Source of the DNA: a virus
Taxonomy: Duplodnaviria > Caudoviricetes
Length of the DNA: 64,000 bases
Virus record (IMG/VR): IMGVR_UViG_2939702853_000004
Coordinates: 37,038 to 101,037 of that record
Reading direction: 5' to 3' (one strand)
Within the stretch, counting starts at the first letter, position 1. Each line of letters starts with the position of its first letter. Under the pieces are notes generated by a model. It searched no databases. It was not told where the DNA came from and worked only from the letters and a program-made list of their open reading frames with translations. The position numbers and the translations under genes were made by a program. Positions 4,028-59,799 of this stretch are shown here, piece after piece.

Positions 4028-4417
4028 TTACTTGACTTGTTTAATTTTATATTCACTAATAAAATGCTCTAGGCTGCGCTTTTGATCTTCAGTCAACATC
4101 AGTGAGTAATTTACCAATGTCTTTTCTTTCGGTGAAGGTTTATTAATTTCTTTGTATGTAACGCTTGAAATCTCATCAATCCAATAAAGTCTATCTCCAA
4201 CATCTTGTTTGGCACTTGCTATATCTGCATGAATACTGACACTATAAAATTTGTCTGCTACTTTACAAATAAGTGACGCTTCATCCTCGTAATACCCTTG
4301 TCCACAATCTAAGTAATCTCTACCGATATCTTTAAAGTGCTCTACGATATCATTTTCTTTGGTTAAATATACTTCGTCTTCAATTACACCATATTCATCA
4401 ATTAGATATTGCTCCAT
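4028..4417 (-). CDS. hypothetical phage protein
   Basis: ORF with GAGGAG RBS. Confidence 0.7.
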   Translation of the reverse strand: MEQYLIDEYGVIEDEVYLTKENDIVEHFKDIGRDYLDCGQGYYEDEASLICKVADKFYSVSIHADIASAKQDVGDRLYWIDEISSVTYKEINKPSPKEKTLVNYSLMLTEDQKRSLEHFISEYKIKQVK

Positions 4418-4541
4418 GTTAGTGATCTCCTCTTTGTATATTTATTTTGGTAAAATTCAAATTTTATAGGCTCACATGTGCAAGTTTGAGAGGTTGTTGG
4501 CTATGAACGACCTATGATCAACCTCTACTATGTATTATTAT

Positions 4542-4784
4542 TTATTTTTGTATATAAAACTTTGCCTTACAATAATACATGAACCCTGTTGAATCTTTTC
4601 CTTCATCGTCAACTATATATGCTTCTGCTACACCGCATGAACTCGCGTTTGCCTCCCATCTGTGTAATTTGTAATACTTACCGACTGTGGTTTTAATATT
4701 GAATTTCTTATCTACTATAAAAACATGAGTTGCTTCATCTATATTCTCAGTGGGAATTAGATTTGCAGGTTGCTCTTCGTGCAT
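4542..4784 (-). CDS. hypothetical phage protein
   Basis: ORF with GAGGTG RBS, downstream of sigmaA promoter. Confidence 0.65.
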   Translation of the reverse strand: MHEEQPANLIPTENIDEATHVFIVDKKFNIKTTVGKYYKLHRWEANASSCGVAEAYIVDDEGKDSTGFMYYCKAKFYIQK

Positions 4785-4813
4785 GGAACCACACCTCTCT
4801 GTTTCGTATTTTA

Positions 4814-4842
4814 ATTATATTTGTATATCGGATTACTGTCAA
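4814..4842 (-). promoter_or_regulatory. sigmaA promoter TTGACA-17-TATAAT with overlapping ACAAATATAATTAAA motif
   Basis: Perfect -35/-10 consensus with 17-bp spacer on minus strand. Confidence 0.75.
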
Positions 4843-4877
4843 CTGATATTTTAATCTGTGTAAAAACTATATTTTAC

Positions 4878-5915
4878 TCAAACTGGTATCTTGTATTTTT
4901 CTTCATTCATTAATGTCATAAAAAATTCTATCCCTTTATCAATTGGCGCATCCTTTTCTCCCAGTACATTTCTATTCCTATGTGCCAATATACAATAAAC
5001 ATTATCTCTAATAATAAATTTACTTGCTTCCTCTTTTAGATCGCTGGCGCTTATGTTATTATCGAAGGCCAATATCACATCTACCCCTAAACGCTCAAGC
5101 TTCAACACCTGTGTTTTGCTTAATTCATGCCCACCAACACTCACAGTATGCTTAATACCATAACTCCACGCCTTCTGGACGCTCTTCTCGGCTTCCCATA
5201 CAATCACTCTGCCAGCCTTTTTTATATGATCATATGTCTTATCTAAACCGTATAGGATTTGGCTCTTTGGGGTAGGTATAGGGAACCAATATTTAGATGT
5301 TTTTAATTTTTTATAATCAAGTGTAGTTCTTCCTTTGACTCCAACTAGCGCTCCTAGTTCGTCTCTAATCGGTATTGTTATACAGCTATCCCTAAGAGAA
5401 TATCCAACTTCAAATAATCTCTGCGCATCACAACCTATTCCTTCATCAAGAAATAGTTTATTAGGGAAAGATATGTACGAATTCAGAATAGACTCATCCA
5501 CTTTTCTTAGTGGTACTTCATCGTAGACTTCGGTCTTTGGTTCAATCAAATCTAAAAAATGAAGACACGGATCGATTTCTTCTTTTGTATATTTATAGTC
5601 AGCGTAGTAGCTATAACCGCAAACCTCACAAATATAATACATAGCTTTTGAAAATGAGATATCTTTATAATGTTGAACAAGTGTTATGATATCTGGATGT
5701 CCACTACCCAGCTTTGGAAGCGGATTTGTGTAGCAGTTTACAAGTAAAGTATCAGTGAAAACCTGAAGGCTAGAAGGGTTATCTCCTCCCGGCCTTGTTG
5801 ATCTTATTTCCCCATAGCTAGACATCCTATCATTGATATGACAACCGAGAGATGTTAAAATATCCGCAACTTTATTGTCTCTTATTATGTATTCTTTTAA
5901 AGTTTGAGCATCAAT
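4878..5915 (-). CDS. DNA primase (TOPRIM; SPbeta YorJ-like); extended to ATT start at 5915
   Basis: TIPIRDELGALVGVKGR, LYGL, EAEKS and LAFDN motifs; in-frame N-terminal extension DAQTLKEYI...LGCH behind GAGGTG RBS. Confidence 0.88.
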   Translation of the reverse strand: MDAQTLKEYIIRDNKVADILTSLGCHINDRMSSYGEIRSTRPGGDNPSSLQVFTDTLLVNCYTNPLPKLGSGHPDIITLVQHYKDISFSKAMYYICEVCGYSYYADYKYTKEEIDPCLHFLDLIEPKTEVYDEVPLRKVDESILNSYISFPNKLFLDEGIGCDAQRLFEVGYSLRDSCITIPIRDELGALVGVKGRTTLDYKKLKTSKYWFPIPTPKSQILYGLDKTYDHIKKAGRVIVWEAEKSVQKAWSYGIKHTVSVGGHELSKTQVLKLERLGVDVILAFDNNISASDLKEEASKFIIRDNVYCILAHRNRNVLGEKDAPIDKGIEFFMTLMNEEKYKIPV

Positions 5916-13368: not shown

Positions 13369-13695
13369 TCATACTTTCACCCGATAATCTGTATGTCTTA
13401 CGAACCAATGTTCTCCACCTTCGATTGGGACTGCTTCGACACCGTATTCTCCGTCTTCTTCCCCATCAAACTCATCCCACTCAACAACAATACATTCTTG
13501 TCCAATTTCAAATTCATGTGAGTTTGTCTTTCCAGTTATAATGATGTGTTGCCCTAACTTTAAGTCCTGAAAATTGTTGTTGAGTTTACGAATTTCCTCA
13601 ATACATTCGAGCAACACCTGTTGAACCACTGACTTATCGACATCTTGACTATTTACAATATTATTTTCGATTTCGTCCAGTCTTTCTTTATCCAT
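13369..13695 (-). CDS. hypothetical phage protein
   Basis: ORF with AAGGAG RBS. Confidence 0.65.
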   Translation of the reverse strand: MDKERLDEIENNIVNSQDVDKSVVQQVLLECIEEIRKLNNNFQDLKLGQHIIITGKTNSHEFEIGQECIVVEWDEFDGEEDGEYGVEAVPIEGGEHWFVRHTDYRVKV

Positions 13696-34542: not shown

Positions 34543-34929
34543 TTACGCAAATAAAACTAACTCCATAAATCTAACATGTTCTCCTCTGCTACTATGTATC
34601 GCATATATATGTTTCGGATCATTAGATTTGAGCTTAGACATTTTAATGTCATCGATCCGTTCTTGGCAAAGTCTCTCAAGTGCAGAAGCATTGTCAATAT
34701 TGTAAAAGTAAATAAACTCATTAACATCGGCATACTTATTTGTATTCAACTTAGTCCTTCTCTTCTTTATCAAATAATTATTTATATCTTGCATACTCCC
34801 ATACAGACATTCAGCTCTAAATTCATTTAAATCCTCTTCACTAGTTATCAAAAAATAGATAGCATTCAATACATTTATAGCTCTTCTGTCGATGTTAAGT
34901 TCCTCTATAAATTTTTCGACCATTTGCAA
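34543..34929 (-). CDS. hypothetical protein downstream of agr-like module
   Basis: ORF with AAGGGAG RBS and TTG start. Confidence 0.6.
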   Translation of the reverse strand: MQMVEKFIEELNIDRRAINVLNAIYFLITSEEDLNEFRAECLYGSMQDINNYLIKKRRTKLNTNKYADVNEFIYFYNIDNASALERLCQERIDDIKMSKLKSNDPKHIYAIHSSRGEHVRFMELVLFA

Positions 34930-35069
34930 AATCTCCCTTTTTGAATTTCTTGATGTTGGAAAACCCTATAATTAAATTATACTTTACTTCTATAATTAGG
35001 CAACTTCGGTTCAGTATAACCGAATTTTTATTGACATTATATAAATACTGGTTAAATATGAATATTATG

Positions 35070-35086
35070 AGTCGAATTATGTCGAA
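35070..35086 (+). promoter_or_regulatory. tandem Spo0A-box-like pair AGTCGAA-tta-TGTCGAA
   Basis: TGNCGAA consensus; 10-bp periodicity as in the abrB promoter. Confidence 0.45.
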
Positions 35087-35189
35087 TGAACTTTTCAATC
35101 AATCAGAACCTTTGTTCATATTATATTAACTTATGGAAATAATGATTATCATATTTAATTATATTAGTTTTATTTAAGTTATTCAGTCT

Positions 35190-35558
35190 TCACTTTTTTC
35201 CTAACAATCTATTCATTACTTCTTTAACCTTTTCTAATCTGGGCTTAGAAATTGTAATAACATGTTCATCACAAAAGATTATACTTTTGTTATTTTCAAT
35301 GTATTCATAACTCATGTTTAAATTCCCCAATGTTCCTCTGTCAGTTACAACGAAACCTTCTTCGCCTGATAATAATTCATGTATTTGATCTGTTGCATTA
35401 CATTGCAAATATTCGCCTTCAGAAGTTATGTATACAGTTCTGTGAACATAATTAATCCTTTCATTTTTTGATGATATAATTTTGTCTATCTCTAGCCATT
35501 CCGCTACCTCGTTAATCTTCTTCCCGTCTCTTTTAACTACTGGTATTGATCGCACCAT
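35190..35558 (-). CDS. stand-alone LytTR DNA-binding domain protein (no receiver domain)
   Basis: YITSEGEY...GFVVTDRGTLGNL...ISKPR resembles the LytTR F-x3-R-x2-LVN...VS pattern; 122 aa; agrBD context. Confidence 0.7.
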   Translation of the reverse strand: MVRSIPVVKRDGKKINEVAEWLEIDKIISSKNERINYVHRTVYITSEGEYLQCNATDQIHELLSGEEGFVVTDRGTLGNLNMSYEYIENNKSIIFCDEHVITISKPRLEKVKEVMNRLLGKK

Positions 35559-35590
35559 AAATGAATGTCACTCCCAACTATATAAACTTA

Positions 35591-35612
35591 TACCCCACAG
35601 CGCTATGGGGTA
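35591..35612 (-). terminator. stem-loop between agrD and the LytTR gene (attenuator or mRNA stabiliser)
   Basis: TACCCCA...TGGGGTA inverted repeat. Confidence 0.5.
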
Positions 35613-35628
35613 CTTATGACAACAGCAA

Positions 35629-35751
35629 CTATTTACGTTTTGGAGCAGGTGGACAGTTAAACAATGCCCATGAAGCAGGCTGCACATTAACCACAGACAG
35701 CAATGTAAAAATAGAACCAACAAAACTCATAATAGCAAACTTTTTACTCAT
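35629..35751 (-). CDS. agrD: AgrD-like cyclic lactone autoinducer precursor MSKKFAIMSFVGSIFTLLSVVNVQPASWALFNCPPAPKRK
   Basis: 40-aa ORF not in the track; AAGGAGGTG RBS; overlaps agrB stop; hydrophobic leader, S-W-A-L-F ring candidate, P-x-x-P tail. Confidence 0.85.
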   Translation of the reverse strand: MSKKFAIMSFVGSIFTLLSVVNVQPASWALFNCPPAPKRK

Positions 35752-36301
35752 CACACTCACCTCCTTTCAAGTTAAAGTTAATTAATGTTAGAGATTGTAT
35801 AAGGGCGCTGATAACGAATGCGCTATTATCTATAAAAAATGAAGCAACAACAAAGAACATAGATAAATACTTAAAATATATATGATTTTTCTTTTCGACA
35901 ACTGTGTTATTTTCAATATTGTAAGGAGCATAAATCATTACTACTATAAAGGTAATTGCTTTGACAGTAGTTAAAATCGCTGTTGAGAGTTCAGGAACAA
36001 AACTCAAGACAATCAGTAAAATTACTGAGACAAAAAAACATTTATCTGCATTTTTTATATGGCGACCTCCAGAGACTGTCCTTAGTAAAGAGAATCCTAA
36101 AAGCGCATAGCATGTGTTTAATGTATTATTAAACACACAACCGATAACAATTATAAATATAATAGGTATAATATTACTAATAATAAATCTTGAAACATGT
36201 AAGACATCATCTTCATCAGGAAAATAATTACTGTATTCTGAATTTATAATTTTCTCTTTGATTTTAAACGCAATAATATCCGTAACTGTTTTATTTTTCA
36301 A
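35744..36301 (-). CDS. agrB: AgrB accessory gene regulator B peptidase
   Basis: LRTVSGGRH...C catalytic motif, YAP motif, multiple TM segments. Confidence 0.9.
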   Translation of the reverse strand: MKNKTVTDIIAFKIKEKIINSEYSNYFPDEDDVLHVSRFIISNIIPIIFIIVIGCVFNNTLNTCYALLGFSLLRTVSGGRHIKNADKCFFVSVILLIVLSFVPELSTAILTTVKAITFIVVMIYAPYNIENNTVVEKKNHIYFKYLSMFFVVASFFIDNSAFVISALIQSLTLINFNLKGGECDE

Positions 36302-36956
36302 TGGTTCGTCTCTCCATTTTTATTCCTATAAAGAGAAGATTAAAGAAACATATTGTCCAAACTATAGATCCCAGCAATAAATTATTTATATCATATGTGA
36401 AACCAACTAATATCATTATACATGATGGAATTACGGTAATAAGAATGTTGTTTTTAGTTAGTGAGAATTTAATGGTAAAATTGTAGCTTATAAAACTAAA
36501 CCATAATCTTTTTTGTACAAGTATATTAGCAAGAAGAAAAATTATTATATCACTGCCTATCTGATATGTATATCTTAAAAAATTGTTTGACTTTATATTT
36601 TCAAGAGTTAAACCAGTGAATGGGTACATTACCCACACAGAAAGACTTTGTACAACGAGAAATACAATTAAAGTCAATACTGCGGCAAAAAAAGCATGTC
36701 TGGAAGAGACCCTAAAAAATGCTATCAAACACAGAGTTAAAGTTAGCATGTTAAGAAGCGGGGCAAGATTACTCATCATAGGATCAAGGCTGTAAAAATA
36801 TGTTGCAACTGATATTAAAATATTAGTTATAATTATTTCAAATAAATACTCTTTAATATTTATTCTAAATACAGAAAAAGCAAAATAAAAAACTACAACC
36901 CCCTCGAATAAAGACATTAAAATATAGATGAAAGCACTCATGAGTATTCTCTCCAT
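36291..36956 (-). CDS. multi-TM AgrC-like sensor domain without a histidine kinase domain
   Basis: About 6-7 TM segments, 221 aa, ends right after the last TM; overlaps agrB start. Confidence 0.7.
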   Translation of the reverse strand: MERILMSAFIYILMSLFEGVVVFYFAFSVFRINIKEYLFEIIITNILISVATYFYSLDPMMSNLAPLLNMLTLTLCLIAFFRVSSRHAFFAAVLTLIVFLVVQSLSVWVMYPFTGLTLENIKSNNFLRYTYQIGSDIIIFLLANILVQKRLWFSFISYNFTIKFSLTKNNILITVIPSCIMILVGFTYDINNLLLGSIVWTICFFNLLFIGIKMERRTIEK

Positions 36957-36992
36957 TTCTCTTATAAACTAATATAACAACTCCATACATTC

Positions 36993-37034
36993 ATAATACC
37001 ATCCAAACACTTTCGCGTCAATAAACAAAAATAA
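36993..37034 (-). promoter_or_regulatory. sigmaA promoter of agr-like operon (TTGACG-17-TATTAT, extended TG) with adjacent ATAAACAAAAATAA motif
   Basis: Direct sequence match. Confidence 0.65.
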
Positions 37035-37054
37035 AAAAAAGAATAAGTTTTACC

Positions 37055-38053
37055 TTATTCTAAATTTGGGTACTTATTTAATAGTGTCTCCAAATTCAAA
37101 AACTCCCTAGTATAAATAGTACTCATAATATTGACACCATCTTTTGCTAGACCAACATTAAAATGTCTGCATATTGCCTCTATTTCATCACGTTGCAGTT
37201 TCTTGCTTGTCTTATATATATCTTTAGCCATTTTTAACATACCGGAATTTCTGATGTTTATCGGATTTAAATAATTATATCCTTCCATTAAACCAATAAC
37301 CTTGATTCTTTGTCTAATTGTGTGCGCACTGGTTTGCCCATCATCTTTATATGCTTTTCCAGCTCCTTTTATCACATATGACGAGGGAACAAGTTTTTTA
37401 TCTCTGCCTCCTGCACTTAAAATACTTTTATAAACAGTTTCTTCATTTGCCTCCTGTATGATTCTTACTAACTGTTCTGTTATCGTTACTTTTCTTAATT
37501 CCTCAGTCCCATACTTGTTAATATTTTTTAACAATATTGTTTTATTTATTGCATCAAGGTCTGAAATTTTTAAATTTAATAGTTCACTATTATCTCTGCC
37601 CATTATACCTTCAAATATAGCTTGAACTATAACAGCATCTTGTCTACTTGGTAATCCATATACAATTTTATTTATTTCATCCTCACTAAAGATTAATTTA
37701 TTTGTTTTATCTACAAAAGATTTATAATATTCAGTGTCACTTACAGGTGAAAGAGGATTTAGCTTGTTATCTCTAAGGTCTTGAGATATTGCCCATCTTA
37801 TGTAGCCCTCAATTGTCGCTCCATTTGTGATCGATGCTTGAACAGTTTTTGGCGATAAATAGTTAAGCAGCTCTTCAATTTCAGCTAAATTAAAGTTATA
37901 TAAGTCTTTGCTGTAATTTTTCTCCATACGACCTGCCCTTTTTAAAACCCTTGAAAATACTCCATATGTGTTTTGAGTAAAGTCTTGTAAGAACCTCAAC
38001 TTCTGCTCTTCGTTGTAAAATTCATCGTTGTATATTTCATTAGCCATTATCAT
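37055..38053 (-). CDS. YopR/MrpR(SroF)-like master repressor with degenerate tyrosine-recombinase fold
   Basis: YNEEQKLRFL N-terminus, FEGIMGRDNSELLNLK, IRNSGM without HxxR or catalytic Tyr; directly downstream of YopQ-like gene. Confidence 0.78.
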   Translation of the reverse strand: MIMANEIYNDEFYNEEQKLRFLQDFTQNTYGVFSRVLKRAGRMEKNYSKDLYNFNLAEIEELLNYLSPKTVQASITNGATIEGYIRWAISQDLRDNKLNPLSPVSDTEYYKSFVDKTNKLIFSEDEINKIVYGLPSRQDAVIVQAIFEGIMGRDNSELLNLKISDLDAINKTILLKNINKYGTEELRKVTITEQLVRIIQEANEETVYKSILSAGGRDKKLVPSSYVIKGAGKAYKDDGQTSAHTIRQRIKVIGLMEGYNYLNPINIRNSGMLKMAKDIYKTSKKLQRDEIEAICRHFNVGLAKDGVNIMSTIYTREFLNLETLLNKYPNLE

Positions 38054-40884: not shown

Positions 40885-41319
40885 CTATATCTGTTTCTTG
40901 AGCTGTGAAATTCGACATTGAGAGACTCCTAATATATCGGCATATTTTTGTTGAGAAAATGCAGGGTGTTGCTTCATCAAATCTTTTAATTTGCCCAACA
41001 ATATTTCAGATCTGTAATTTTTCTGTGTAGGGGCTAATCTATCCGGGGAGTACTTCTGGCAGTTTGTACCATTCTTCATATCATGAATACATTCCCCACA
41101 AACAAAACTGCCTCTAAAATAAGTCAATTGCTCTGCTGAACCGCACATTTTACAAGACATACCAGTGTATATTTTGAAAGTTAGTGTATTGGTTTCTGAA
41201 TCTATAAATATTTCTAAAGGATCGCCCACATTGATACCCATTGAAATTCGCATCTCTTTGGGAATGACGATACGGCCTAACGAATCCAAGGGACGTGTCA
41301 TACCTGTACTTTTTACCAT
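40885..41319 (-). CDS. AbrB-family transition-state regulator with Zn ribbon and C-terminal HTH
   Basis: KSTGMTRPLDSLGRIVIPKEMR; CKMC/CGEC; QQKYADILGVSQCRIS. Confidence 0.88.
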   Translation of the reverse strand: MVKSTGMTRPLDSLGRIVIPKEMRISMGINVGDPLEIFIDSETNTLTFKIYTGMSCKMCGSAEQLTYFRGSFVCGECIHDMKNGTNCQKYSPDRLAPTQKNYRSEILLGKLKDLMKQHPAFSQQKYADILGVSQCRISQLKKQI

Positions 41320-41335
41320 TAATCCACCCCCTCAG

Positions 41336-41554
41336 CTAATGATTTTTCAACCAACAGTCTAAATTGAGATTTGTTTTTACAACTCTAGATACTTTAGAAT
41401 CCCATATACGGAATCCGTTGCACATAAAGTTATCTAATTCATGAATTTTTTCAGCTTCTATTTTTACAAATCTCCAAGTTTCAAGCCTGTGTTCTCTATC
41501 ATAGTCCACTAATTTCATAAGACAATATCTTTTACTCATAGCTGCAAACCTCAT
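41336..41554 (-). CDS. hypothetical protein
   Basis: ORF upstream of AbrB-like gene. Confidence 0.55.
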   Translation of the reverse strand: MRFAAMSKRYCLMKLVDYDREHRLETWRFVKIEAEKIHELDNFMCNGFRIWDSKVSRVVKTNLNLDCWLKNH

Positions 41555-41655
41555 GTTGTGTATTTTTTACTGTCTATTTTTTGGTTATGGTGTTAGAATA
41601 AAATACAGATCACTCCCTATTTGAAAAGTAGGGAGATTTTTCTATGCCATCAAAA

Positions 41656-41674
41656 TGGAACGAAATTCGTTCCA
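41656..41674. promoter_or_regulatory. perfect palindrome TGGAACGAA-A-TTCGTTCCA, candidate operator of the divergent XRE regulator
   Basis: 9-bp inverted repeat in a divergent intergenic region. Confidence 0.55.
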
Positions 41675-41725
41675 CAGTTATATTATAAAAGGGGATTATT
41701 TACATGTCAAGAGGTATGGTGAAAT

Positions 41726-41947
41726 ATGTGGTATTTTGAGATTACGCTTGATCACATACTTGTTAGGAGAAATATAAGCAGGAGAGAATTAGCTCGTAAA
41801 ACTGGCATAAGACACGCTACAATCAACGATCTTTGCAATAATACTGCTAAGCAGCTACTATTCGATAATTTGGCTGCTATTTGTGAAGAATTAAATGTAG
41901 ATGTAAGTGACGTAATTGTTCTACATAAGTTTGAAAAGCGGGATTGA
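41726..41947 (+). CDS. XRE/Cro-like HTH regulator
   Basis: ISRRELARKTGIRHATINDLCNN...LAAICEEL. Confidence 0.88.
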   Translation: MWYFEITLDHILVRRNISRRELARKTGIRHATINDLCNNTAKQLLFDNLAAICEELNVDVSDVIVLHKFEKRD

Positions 41948-41957
41948 TTTCCCGCTT
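41934..41957. terminator. bidirectional terminator between XRE and MazF genes
   Basis: AAGCGGGA/TCCCGCTT stem between convergent genes. Confidence 0.6.
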
Positions 41958-41965
41958 CTACTCTT

Positions 41966-42334
41966 TTATCTCATTGCCAAAGAAACAGATAGTGCATTCA
42001 CAATTTTGTCACTGTACTCGTCTGGCAGCGTAGTTATTTTAAAATCTAGTTGGTCTTTGGATATGGTCATAATCTGTTCTAACAAAATAATACTATCATG
42101 ATATAGTCCTGTGTCAGCAACACTAACTTTTACGTGGGTTGGCATATCTTTCTTAACGCGAGATGTTACAGGGGCGACAATAACTACTGGGGAGTATTTG
42201 TTTCCGATATTATTGCCAATCACCACACAGGGTCTTTCACCACTTTGCACACTCCCTTTGCTGCTTCCCAGTTGTACATTCCACATATCTAGTCTTTTAA
42301 TTTCTTTTGTCATTTTTTCGATTGCTACTGCCAT
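41966..42334 (-). CDS. mazF: MazF/PemK (EndoA-like) endoribonuclease, no adjacent antitoxin
   Basis: GSVQSGERPCVVIGNNIGNKYSPVVIVAPVTS...PTHV...LLEQIMTISK; GAGGAG RBS supports start at 42334. Confidence 0.88.
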   Translation of the reverse strand: MAVAIEKMTKEIKRLDMWNVQLGSSKGSVQSGERPCVVIGNNIGNKYSPVVIVAPVTSRVKKDMPTHVKVSVADTGLYHDSIILLEQIMTISKDQLDFKITTLPDEYSDKIVNALSVSLAMR

Positions 42335-42489
42335 TATGTAATCACTCCTCGTTAAATATTTCTTCTTATTATTATAATTTTTCATTATTTTTGTTTTTTC
42401 TACGTGTTGTTTCTATATGTACTTATCTCTCACATTCTTATTCTCTTTCTACTTGTAATTATACTAACAAAAATAATTAAAAACAAGAT

Positions 42490-58859: not shown

Positions 58860-59723
58860 ATGAATGTTATGGAAAATGATTTGCTTAGTGTAACTGATTT
58901 AGACACAATAGTTGTTTATATTAGGATGTGTTATAATAACGAGAATTGGGAGATGTTAGAAAAGCTTTCTGATCATCTTTCTAATTGTACTTACGACGAA
59001 ATTAAGTACAATAAAGACCAACAAGACATACATACTAAAAATAAAACTAAAAGCCCTTTAGTTTACTATTATGGGTATGGTCACCTAATGAAAGGTATCG
59101 CACTACAGAAGATGAAAAAATACAGTGAATCAGCGGTATGTATAAACAATTATTCTGAATTGGGCTGGTTTGATGGTTTGGACGAAGAGGGGAAAGCGAT
59201 AGTAAAAGACTTTAAATTTAACGCAAAAGCTAACAGGTACACTTTAGAGGTGCTGAAGGGCAATAAAGCTGTAATAAATGAGTACATTGATTATCTTGAA
59301 AATGATCCCGCGGAATACTTACCAGCCTATATAACAATTCTAGAAGCTGCTTTAGATTATAATTGGGATGTAGACCATTATCTTAATAAATTATCTACCC
59401 GTGCATCTTGGTTATCTGATTTTGAAGATTCCGCAAATATTAATTATTATGTCAACTATATGTACCATCTTGCATTGTACAATTTTTGCAAAGAAAGATT
59501 TTCTGATGCCTTACATAGCGTGATAAAAGCTTTGCAATCATCAGTTAAAATTAGAGAGGGAAAGTTTTTTCTAAAATGTGTGGCTCTTTTTGAGTTACAT
59601 CGTAATTTTGCAACATCAGAACAAATTAAGACTTACGTAGACTTTCTAACAATAATATTGGAAGGAGAGTTTAAAAATGAAAAAAACATTGCTCTTATTG
59701 ACAATCGCATTCGGCCTATTTAG
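58860..59723 (+). CDS. AloR-like (RRNPP) TPR peptide receptor lacking the N-terminal HTH
   Basis: PLVYYYGYGHLMKG...YSELGWFDGLDEEG...ANRYTLE.L.GN...ILEAA recalled as a Paenibacillus AloR C-terminal signature; followed by propeptide. Confidence 0.75.
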   Translation: MNVMENDLLSVTDLDTIVVYIRMCYNNENWEMLEKLSDHLSNCTYDEIKYNKDQQDIHTKNKTKSPLVYYYGYGHLMKGIALQKMKKYSESAVCINNYSELGWFDGLDEEGKAIVKDFKFNAKANRYTLEVLKGNKAVINEYIDYLENDPAEYLPAYITILEAALDYNWDVDHYLNKLSTRASWLSDFEDSANINYYVNYMYHLALYNFCKERFSDALHSVIKALQSSVKIREGKFFLKCVALFELHRNFATSEQIKTYVDFLTIILEGEFKNEKNIALIDNRIRPI

Positions 59724-59799
59724 TTTTATACCAGTAAACGGTAATTTTAATGGTGGAACTATTGTACCTAATAATCACGGGGTTAATATGTGCTTATAA
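59677..59799 (+). CDS. secreted signalling propeptide (AloP-like) MKKTLLLLTIAFGLFSFIPVNGNFNGGTIVPNNHGVNMCL
   Basis: 40-aa ORF not in the track; GAAGGAG RBS inside receptor 3' end; signal peptide and C-terminal HG motif. Confidence 0.8.
   Translation: MKKTLLLLTIAFGLFSFIPVNGNFNGGTIVPNNHGVNMCL

Follow-up and report, generated by a model that had tools for sequence, protein, structure and literature searches.

The stretch of viral DNA analysed here (64,000 nts, positions 37,038 to 101,037 of the IMG/VR record IMGVR_UViG_2939702853_000004, Caudoviricetes; hereafter the window) comes from a large SPbeta-like Paenibacillus prophage and carries on its minus strand a compact agr-like cassette. In order, the cassette comprises a promoter, a seven-transmembrane (7-TM) sensor homologue, AgrB, AgrD, a hairpin and a LytTR protein, and it occupies the slot between the terminator of the mrpR/yopR-like gene and an SOS-box early promoter. 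An original prediction, made from the sequence of the window, had described a promoter, AgrB, a 40-amino-acid (aa) AgrD and a hairpin following the master repressor, all of which are present. Its central observation, that kinase and receiver are missing from an otherwise complete agr-type cassette, agrees with our domain and neighbourhood searches. The elements of the cassette are as follows.

36993..37021, minus strand: sigma-A promoter of the cassette, TTGACG-17-TGgTATTAT with a TG extension, found by promoter scan
36291..36941, minus strand: 7-TM protein, 216 aa, a stand-alone homologue, by sequence, of the AgrC-type sensor domain that lacks both DHp and ATPase domains
35744..36301, minus strand: AgrB peptidase/cyclase, 185 aa, with a TTG start that overlaps the end of the sensor gene; Pfam AgrB E 4.8e-20
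35629..35751, minus strand: AgrD propeptide, 40 aa, with a predicted Ser-lactone ring SWALF and the tail NCPPAPKRK
35590..35613, minus strand: stem-loop of 10 base pairs between agrD and lytTR
35190..35558, minus strand: LytTR-fold DNA-binding protein, 122 aa, with no receiver domain

The open reading frame of the 7-TM protein spans 36956..36291, and both a GGAGAG ribosome-binding site and all homologues place its start at 36941; the protein is kinase-less, as had been predicted, and is likely 216 rather than 221 aa long. No family in Pfam or NCBIfam matches it. Its AlphaFold2 (AF2) model, with a predicted local distance difference test score (pLDDT) of 93.8, has seven membrane helices joined on the outside by very short loops and ends 10 residues past the seventh helix, and the positive charges carried by loops 1, 3 and 5 and by the tail point to a topology with the N-terminus outside and the C-terminus inside. 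When the family profile was searched against 400 Bacillota genomes, it matched (E 1e-13 to 1e-6) the N-terminal 200 residues of roughly 446-aa proteins, which contain SPOB_a and HATPase_c/GHKL domains and whose genes lie directly upstream of AgrB. Comparison of the sensor family with the sensor domain of these AgrB-linked kinases gave an hhalign probability of 97% (E 8e-11, 186 columns), and the gene order sensor-agrB-agrD equals that of the kinase-bearing loci (L070-L075). Because both profile and hhalign match the N-termini of AgrB-adjacent kinases, the 7-TM protein is, judged by homology, a stand-alone counterpart of the AgrC-type sensor domain, and its proposed identity as a membrane sensor gains support from these two comparisons.

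Searching the same profile against 1.8 billion representatives returned 330 clusters. Save a few shorter fragments, the 150 best of them measure about 200-240 aa throughout, and no kinase-fused relative appeared in a search limited to longer proteins. Recent truncation of a full agrC, an origin that the original prediction had raised, is ruled out, since the family is old, uniformly about 220 aa long and showed no longer forms. A search of the ESM Atlas with the sensor gave unnamed clusters only. Split AgrC-type receptors were also seen next to AgrB in other Bacillota (L069, L071, L073), where a membrane piece of 156-170 aa precedes a second one of 290-304 aa that bears the SPOB_a and GHKL domains; such naturally split receptors may represent a stage between full AgrC and its kinase-less counterpart.

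At the other end of the cassette, the 122-aa protein itself stays below the cut-off of Pfam LytTR (E 0.019), and 11 of its 17 relatives match that family. The profile of these relatives matches ComE and AgrA. Its AF2 model (pLDDT 80.8) has LytTR domains as all ten of its best Foldseek matches (AgrA 4g4k, E 2.5e-4, probability 1.0). Pfam detected no receiver domain, nor does the protein have room for one. The earlier description of a LytTR-only protein is therefore borne out by the family profile, the Pfam matches of the relatives and the structure comparison. The pairing typical of LytTR regulatory systems (LRS), in which a LytTR regulator without a receiver shares its locus with a membrane protein gene, is thus present here.

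AgrB looks catalytically intact, as its His...Cys dyad with 7-residue spacing can be read directly from SGGRHIKNADKC; the same His/Cys spacing occurs in AgrB of Brevibacillus phage Abouo and of the host. The agrD gene overlaps the 3' end of agrB, is preceded by a strong AAAGGAGGTGA ribosome-binding site and had no match to any hidden Markov model. Compared with prophages of P. polymyxa and Paenibacillus sp. NRS-1775, AgrD differs in its C-terminal half by a single Q/H change, while neighbouring genes are 50-82% identical, and agrD DNA among these prophages has many synonymous third-position changes, indicating purifying selection. Since this half of the protein is preserved despite so many synonymous changes, agrD is a real gene. 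A motif A-S-W-x-h-h followed by x-x-E-x-V-P-x-E-L-K is common to 9-15 related phage loci, and the candidate ring SWALF of the original prediction fits its first part. The Pro of this motif lies 6 residues after the ring, and AgrD of S. aureus has a Pro at the same +6 position. Judging from the motif, Ser is likely the lactone nucleophile of the ring. At least eight ring variants (S-W-x-x-x and S-x-L-W-L) occur among related phages, SWALF being accompanied by SWMLF, SWTLV, SWTIL, SWTVI, SWTLI, SILWL and SALWL.

We also surveyed related loci, using MrpR as the anchor. The cassette lies directly after mrpR in 8 of 16 Paenibacillus species genomes and in 18 of 37 IMG/VR contigs (120-200 kb), and 16 of the 17 IMG/VR contigs whose MrpR is at least 35% identical carry it. 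The window sensor falls within an 18-member clade (Shimodaira-Hasegawa-like approximate likelihood ratio test, 96), and those members that were looked up are all encoded directly after mrpR. In cassette-less relatives, mrpR leads straight into the next conserved gene or other genes stand there; a homologue of the 128-aa next gene directly follows mrpR in two such loci (L054 and L064). The cassette has therefore long been resident in this phage lineage, as a module that is optional. A survey of synteny and of AgrD/sensor co-variation had been suggested along with the original prediction; the former yields a fixed slot after mrpR in many related phages, and the latter a sharp joint divergence in one comparison, which represents one event only. 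All four cassette genes diverge roughly in step with MrpR overall. When L082/L084 are compared with L083 (ring SILWL versus SALWL), MrpR is 95% and the next gene 92% identical, whereas the sensor is 59-60%, AgrB 51%, AgrD 70% and LytTR 79% identical. Same-ring pairs with MrpR at 94-96% and the next gene at 87-94% have sensors 88-97%, AgrB 86-96%, AgrD 95-100% and LytTR 92-100% identical. This contrast has the pattern of the agr hypervariable block, an argument for a matched set of peptide, AgrB and sensor.

The architecture is kept in phages and chromosomes alike, with proteins down to about 25% identity. Members of the sensor family were found in 257 of 401 Paenibacillaceae genomes; among the chromosomal loci sampled, agrB follows the sensor gene in 30 of 30, and a single or tandem LytTR lies within a short flank in 21. 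The host chromosome itself has a paralogue on contig C20 (L002, G000:C20:33171-36629) with sensor, AgrB, small peptide and tandem LytTR (genes at 816-1529, 1480-2028, 2007-2132 and 2185-2871). Peptides of the chromosomal paralogues (host, L011-L040) are hydrophilic, with K-x-h-h-G and then x-x-P-h-P-x-E-L-K-K and no conserved Cys/Ser at the ring position; their product may be linear, closed as a Lys lactam or of another kind. A third, decayed copy in the host (L076, G000:C2:16500-25500, about 4070-5090) has a stop that splits the sensor gene and an AgrB that is truncated or fused. Other Paenibacillus phages have a second layout after mrpR (L058, L060, L061, L090, L093), consisting of agrB, sensor, a different small peptide, which ends for example in LGLWHIPTKKAGN or VNIWFHEPKVRK, and a longer LytTR-like protein of 170-202 aa.

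The region 3' of lytTR is conserved among diverged phages as a TATAAT, a LexA box, a direct repeat, a second promoter and the first early gene. Two of these elements bear on a possible target of the LytTR protein.

35106..35117, no strand assigned: LexA (Cheo) box GAAC-N4-GTTC, directly after a -10-like TATAAT; placement conserved in related loci
35071..35086, minus strand: direct repeat TTCGACA-N5-(T)CGAC with a 10-bp period, a candidate LytTR operator

As far as its sequence tells, the LexA-box element is an SOS-controlled promoter towards the early genes. Perfect GAAC-N4-GTTC boxes occur four times in the window against 0.58 expected. They lie at 13402 (inside a coding region), 16157, 35106 and 42491 (before a MazF-like gene). 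The direct repeat, found 15-27 nts past the LexA box, has the family form TTCGACA-N5-YGACA, and repeats of this type are unique to this place within the window. All 24 loci that carry the cassette in canonical gene order have CGACA-N5-YGACA; they include many close kin and represent by estimate about a dozen distinct lineages. The repeat is present in none of the four cassette-less loci in which a LexA-box promoter follows mrpR. Direct repeats are the type of site that LytTR proteins bind. Because of this, and because the repeat is tied to the presence of the cassette, we propose that it is the LytTR operator. A pair of neighbouring half-sites would fit the tandem LytTR proteins seen on chromosomes; the surroundings of the host's chromosomal locus yielded no direct repeats. 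Two other candidates were set aside: a multi-copy MrpR operator analogous to SPBRE was rejected for the TTCGAC repeat, which occurs only once in 64 kb, and the LexA box plus TTCGACA pair at 13402-13441 lies within a coding region and was taken as chance.

Our main reading, to which we assign a probability of about 50%, is that the cassette is a phage-resident, phosphorylation-free variant of agr whose peptide would let the phage adjust SOS induction or its early lytic programme to density. AgrB would cut and cyclise AgrD into a Ser-lactone peptide with the ring SWALF, which would be exported from the cell and then bound from outside by the 7-TM protein. Because the cassette contains neither kinase nor receiver, the sensor would control the LytTR protein directly, likely by membrane hold-and-release or the reverse, as in LRS. 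The LytTR protein would bind TTCGACA-N5-YGACA beside the LexA box, and the density of lysogens or infected cells would then tune SOS induction or the early lytic programme. The cassette would in this way fill the role that arbitrium has in SPbeta. AimR is absent from the genome (99.95% complete) by the Pfam AimR model, for which the B. subtilis control was positive, and the cassette may therefore stand in for arbitrium. That the module might replace arbitrium, as had been suggested, is consistent with this absence; its role in the phage life cycle, that is, peptide sensing, coupling of sensor and LytTR and control of lysis versus lysogeny, is what we infer from the sequence. We put forward more tentatively the wider claim that a cyclic-lactone peptide, a kinase-less 7-TM receptor and a stand-alone LytTR protein make up a second, unrelated form of phage-phage communication, which would gate an SOS-inducible early promoter without phosphorylation and whose pherotypes would keep related phages apart. 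The kinase-free agr-type cassette is real and conserved, and its role in phage communication is well motivated but unproven.

Several observations weigh against this reading. The cassette is lacking in about half of the surveyed MrpR-type phages and so is not a core switch. The evidence for co-variation comes from one independent contrast, and the AgrD tail of the window, NCPPAPKRK, deviates from the family form EEVPxELK. The sensor fold is without a solved relative: the 7-TM profile had no match among PDB sequences, the best Foldseek hit of the model against PDB had an E of 0.26, and a VIA-align Z of 8.2 is in the noise range for helical bundles, although the absence of a PDB match is no evidence of a new fold. 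AgrA, ComE and LRS regulators typically use repeats of 9 bp + 12 bp. The 10-bp period of the proposed operator is atypical in comparison, and another protein could bind it. LRS-type 9-bp repeats, which would be spaced by 11-13 bp and lie some 10 bp before the -35 of their operon, were not found upstream of the -35 of the cassette. Finally, the same prophage contains a second receptor/propeptide-like pair at 58860-59799 on the plus strand, in which a gene for a 287-aa helical protein overlaps that for a 40-aa secreted-looking peptide ending in IVPNNHGVNMCL. The 287-aa protein has no Pfam family above the cut-off and is not AimR by Pfam.

The cassette might instead serve lysogenic conversion or manipulation of the host, as an accessory "moron" whose peptide and LytTR protein act on host genes or on the kinase-less agr-like locus of the host. 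The same architecture on the host chromosome (G000:C20), the wide occurrence of the sensor family in Paenibacillaceae, the optional presence of the cassette among MrpR-type phages and its own constitutive-looking promoter all fit this explanation. We nevertheless consider it unlikely, as the phage peptides combine a hydrophobic leader with an A-S-W ring and thus differ from the hydrophilic host type, the phage and host sensors are only 23-25% identical, and the phage cassettes form their own clade that has diverged alongside MrpR. Moreover, the cassette-linked repeat lies in the SOS promoter region of the phage itself, while its motif is not enriched across the host genome (6 matches versus 7 for the control). 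Given the very different host peptide and the low identity of the sensors, interference with host agr, which the original prediction had offered as an alternative, likewise looks unlikely. Another explanation concerns the 7-TM protein, which could help AgrB to process, export or tolerate the peptide rather than act as a receptor, LytTR being otherwise regulated or constitutively active. The membrane protease MroQ of S. aureus is such a peptide-processing helper, and a helper would agree with a gene directly before agrB in an overlapping reading frame and with the very short extracellular loops of the model. Homology to the sensor domain of AgrB-linked histidine kinases speaks for a receptor, as does fast divergence alongside the peptide, and the protein has no protease-type motifs, with only two Gln residues near-invariant among 119 relatives; we regard the helper role as improbable.

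The remaining explanations retain or discard canonical agr signalling altogether. If AgrC were split and the sensor signalled through a separate host kinase in trans, the circuit would not be phosphorylation-free. There is little chance of this in our view: no kinase gene was found in or beside any of about 60 loci inspected, the LytTR partner has no receiver and hence no phospho-acceptor, and hhalign found no match between the 7-TM family and the sensor part of an AgrC/ComD-like kinase of the host, the homology being confined to AgrB-adjacent kinases from other Bacillota. These observations have to be set against the natural split AgrC-type sensors that adjoin AgrB in other Bacillota and the AgrC/ComD-type kinases that the host does possess. 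A decaying, functionless remnant of a canonical agr locus would account for the missing kinase and receiver, and a clearly broken third copy is present in the host at G000:C2. This explanation is already disfavoured and has a very small probability, since each of the four frames is intact and equipped with a ribosome-binding site, changes in AgrD are synonymous only, the sensor family is uniform in length and the architecture persists at low protein identity in phages and chromosomes.

Comparison with known systems further defines the cassette that we interpret as a phosphorylation-free agr variant. Canonical agr (agrBDCA of S. aureus, also in clostridia and other Bacillota) has in common with it the AgrB His/Cys dyad, an AgrD made up of leader, 5-residue ring and tail, the last with Pro at +6, a polytopic AgrC-type sensor (homologous at an hhalign probability of 97%), a LytTR output and a hypervariable sensor/AgrB/AgrD block. 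It differs in that the window sensor lacks DHp and ATPase domains and the LytTR protein lacks a receiver, so that no phosphorelay is possible; the ring nucleophile is Cys in canonical agr and predicted to be Ser (lactone) here, and the window cassette is carried by a phage and adjoins the master repressor. The LRS HdrRM and BrsRM of Streptococcus mutans likewise combine a receiver-less LytTR protein with a membrane protein and no kinase, and the direct protein-protein inhibition by their membrane proteins is a precedent for LytTR-only regulators (PMC6193735). Unlike the cassette, LRS have no known signal and no AgrBD, and their membrane proteins belong to other families, e.g. DUF2154 (PMC6193735). 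Their gene order is regulator followed by membrane protein, and their hallmark, 9-bp repeats separated by a 12-bp spacer and placed some 10 bp ahead of their own -35, was not found at the window cassette. Arbitrium (AimR/AimP/AimX of SPbeta and phi3T) is also a peptide system near the yop/mrpR operon with many peptide variants, and the cassette is possibly its functional analogue. The parts of arbitrium are unrelated, its linear hexapeptide being imported by Opp and recognised by a cytoplasmic receptor of the tetratricopeptide repeat type.

Phages with agr genes have been reported before. The C. difficile (Clostridioides difficile) phage phiCDHM1 has the order sensor, agrB, agrD in common with the window, but encodes a full AgrC kinase and no LytTR gene, whereas the window cassette has no kinase and its own LytTR (PMC3901668). 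Hargreaves et al. (2014) noted AgrB, AgrD and membrane proteins without an ATPase domain in phages Abouo, Davies and Emery; the LytTR gene was not recognised, and no homology test, survey or mechanism was given (PMC3901668). In our comparison, gp44-gp47 of Brevibacillus phage Abouo are the same four genes in the same order as the window cassette: a 222-aa membrane protein 25% identical to that of the window, AgrB, a 42-aa peptide and a 122-aa protein (gp47) that is annotated "peptidase" and is a LytTR protein by Pfam (LytTR 9.7e-7). Abouo, Davies and Emery differ in being 45-kb phages with the cassette beside the integrase, and are not SPbeta-like phages with MrpR. An AgrB search against GenBank phages found phage Abouo only, and megablast and tblastn of the region and of the sensor against the same phages gave no match. 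The Pp-AIP system of P. polymyxa is not this system; it lies at a different locus, with the peptide ICFGLF (a thiodepsipeptide) and an adjacent acetyltransferase gene, agrE (PMC12180512). We found no published description of an AgrB-LRS combination or of a phage lysogeny system with LytTR and AgrB, nor any paper dealing with the link to LytTR, the homology of the sensor, the slot in SPbeta-like phages or the chromosomal family. New here are the sensor-domain homology within an old family of uniform length, the SPbeta-like slot with its ring variants, the contrast between L082/L084 and L083, the cassette-linked direct repeat and the absence of AimR; the architecture as such is common on Paenibacillaceae chromosomes and was already half-noticed in Brevibacillus phages in 2014.

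Arbitrium has so far been the main paradigm for density sensing by phages. If the proposed circuit is true, the cassette would give phages another way, assembled from agr components, to measure their own density. It would also show how AgrC-type receptor signalling can do without a kinase, a point of relevance to the hundreds of identical chromosomal loci of no known function in Paenibacillaceae. The cassette is tractable: its four genes are small, its peptide is predicted and a candidate operator lies next to a LexA box. Its natural set of pherotypes is useful for the study of specificity evolution.

The surroundings of the cassette contain the following elements.

37055..38053, minus strand: MrpR/YopR-like master repressor gene, the last gene of the yop-like operon (context)
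37041..37060, minus strand: terminator of the mrpR operon, inverted repeat GAATAAG-N6-CTTATTC and then a T-run
34976..35003, minus strand: second sigma-A promoter, before the next gene, TTGCCT-16-TATAAT; conserved among related loci
34543..34929, minus strand: next conserved gene, 128 aa, the first of the early/replication cluster (context)

The MrpR-like protein matches Pfam MrpR_N_CB (4.8e-24) and MrpR_C_cat (1e-11), and its closest phage relatives are about 31% identical. Between its terminator and the -35 of the cassette there is only a T-run of about 20 nts, and the -35 and extended -10 of the cassette promoter are kept in an alignment of nine diverged loci. The inverted repeat of the terminator has one copy within the window. 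Its arms, AGAATAAG and CTTATTCT, are identical in 7 of 9 aligned diverged phages, with MrpR down to 38% identity. Because this conservation exceeds what a terminator needs, the arms may have an extra role as a protein-binding site. A strong stem-loop 3' of agrD was present in all 10 diverged loci tested, in unrelated sequences and mostly without a clean U-run; it is probably a leaky terminator or a 3'-end stabiliser that keeps the dose of LytTR low relative to the first three genes. The yop-like operon is headed by genes for a MazE-like protein (144 aa) and a PemK/MazF-like protein (139 aa) at 40885-42385 of the window, a pair that recalls the MazEF link in the lysis-lysogeny control of SPbeta.

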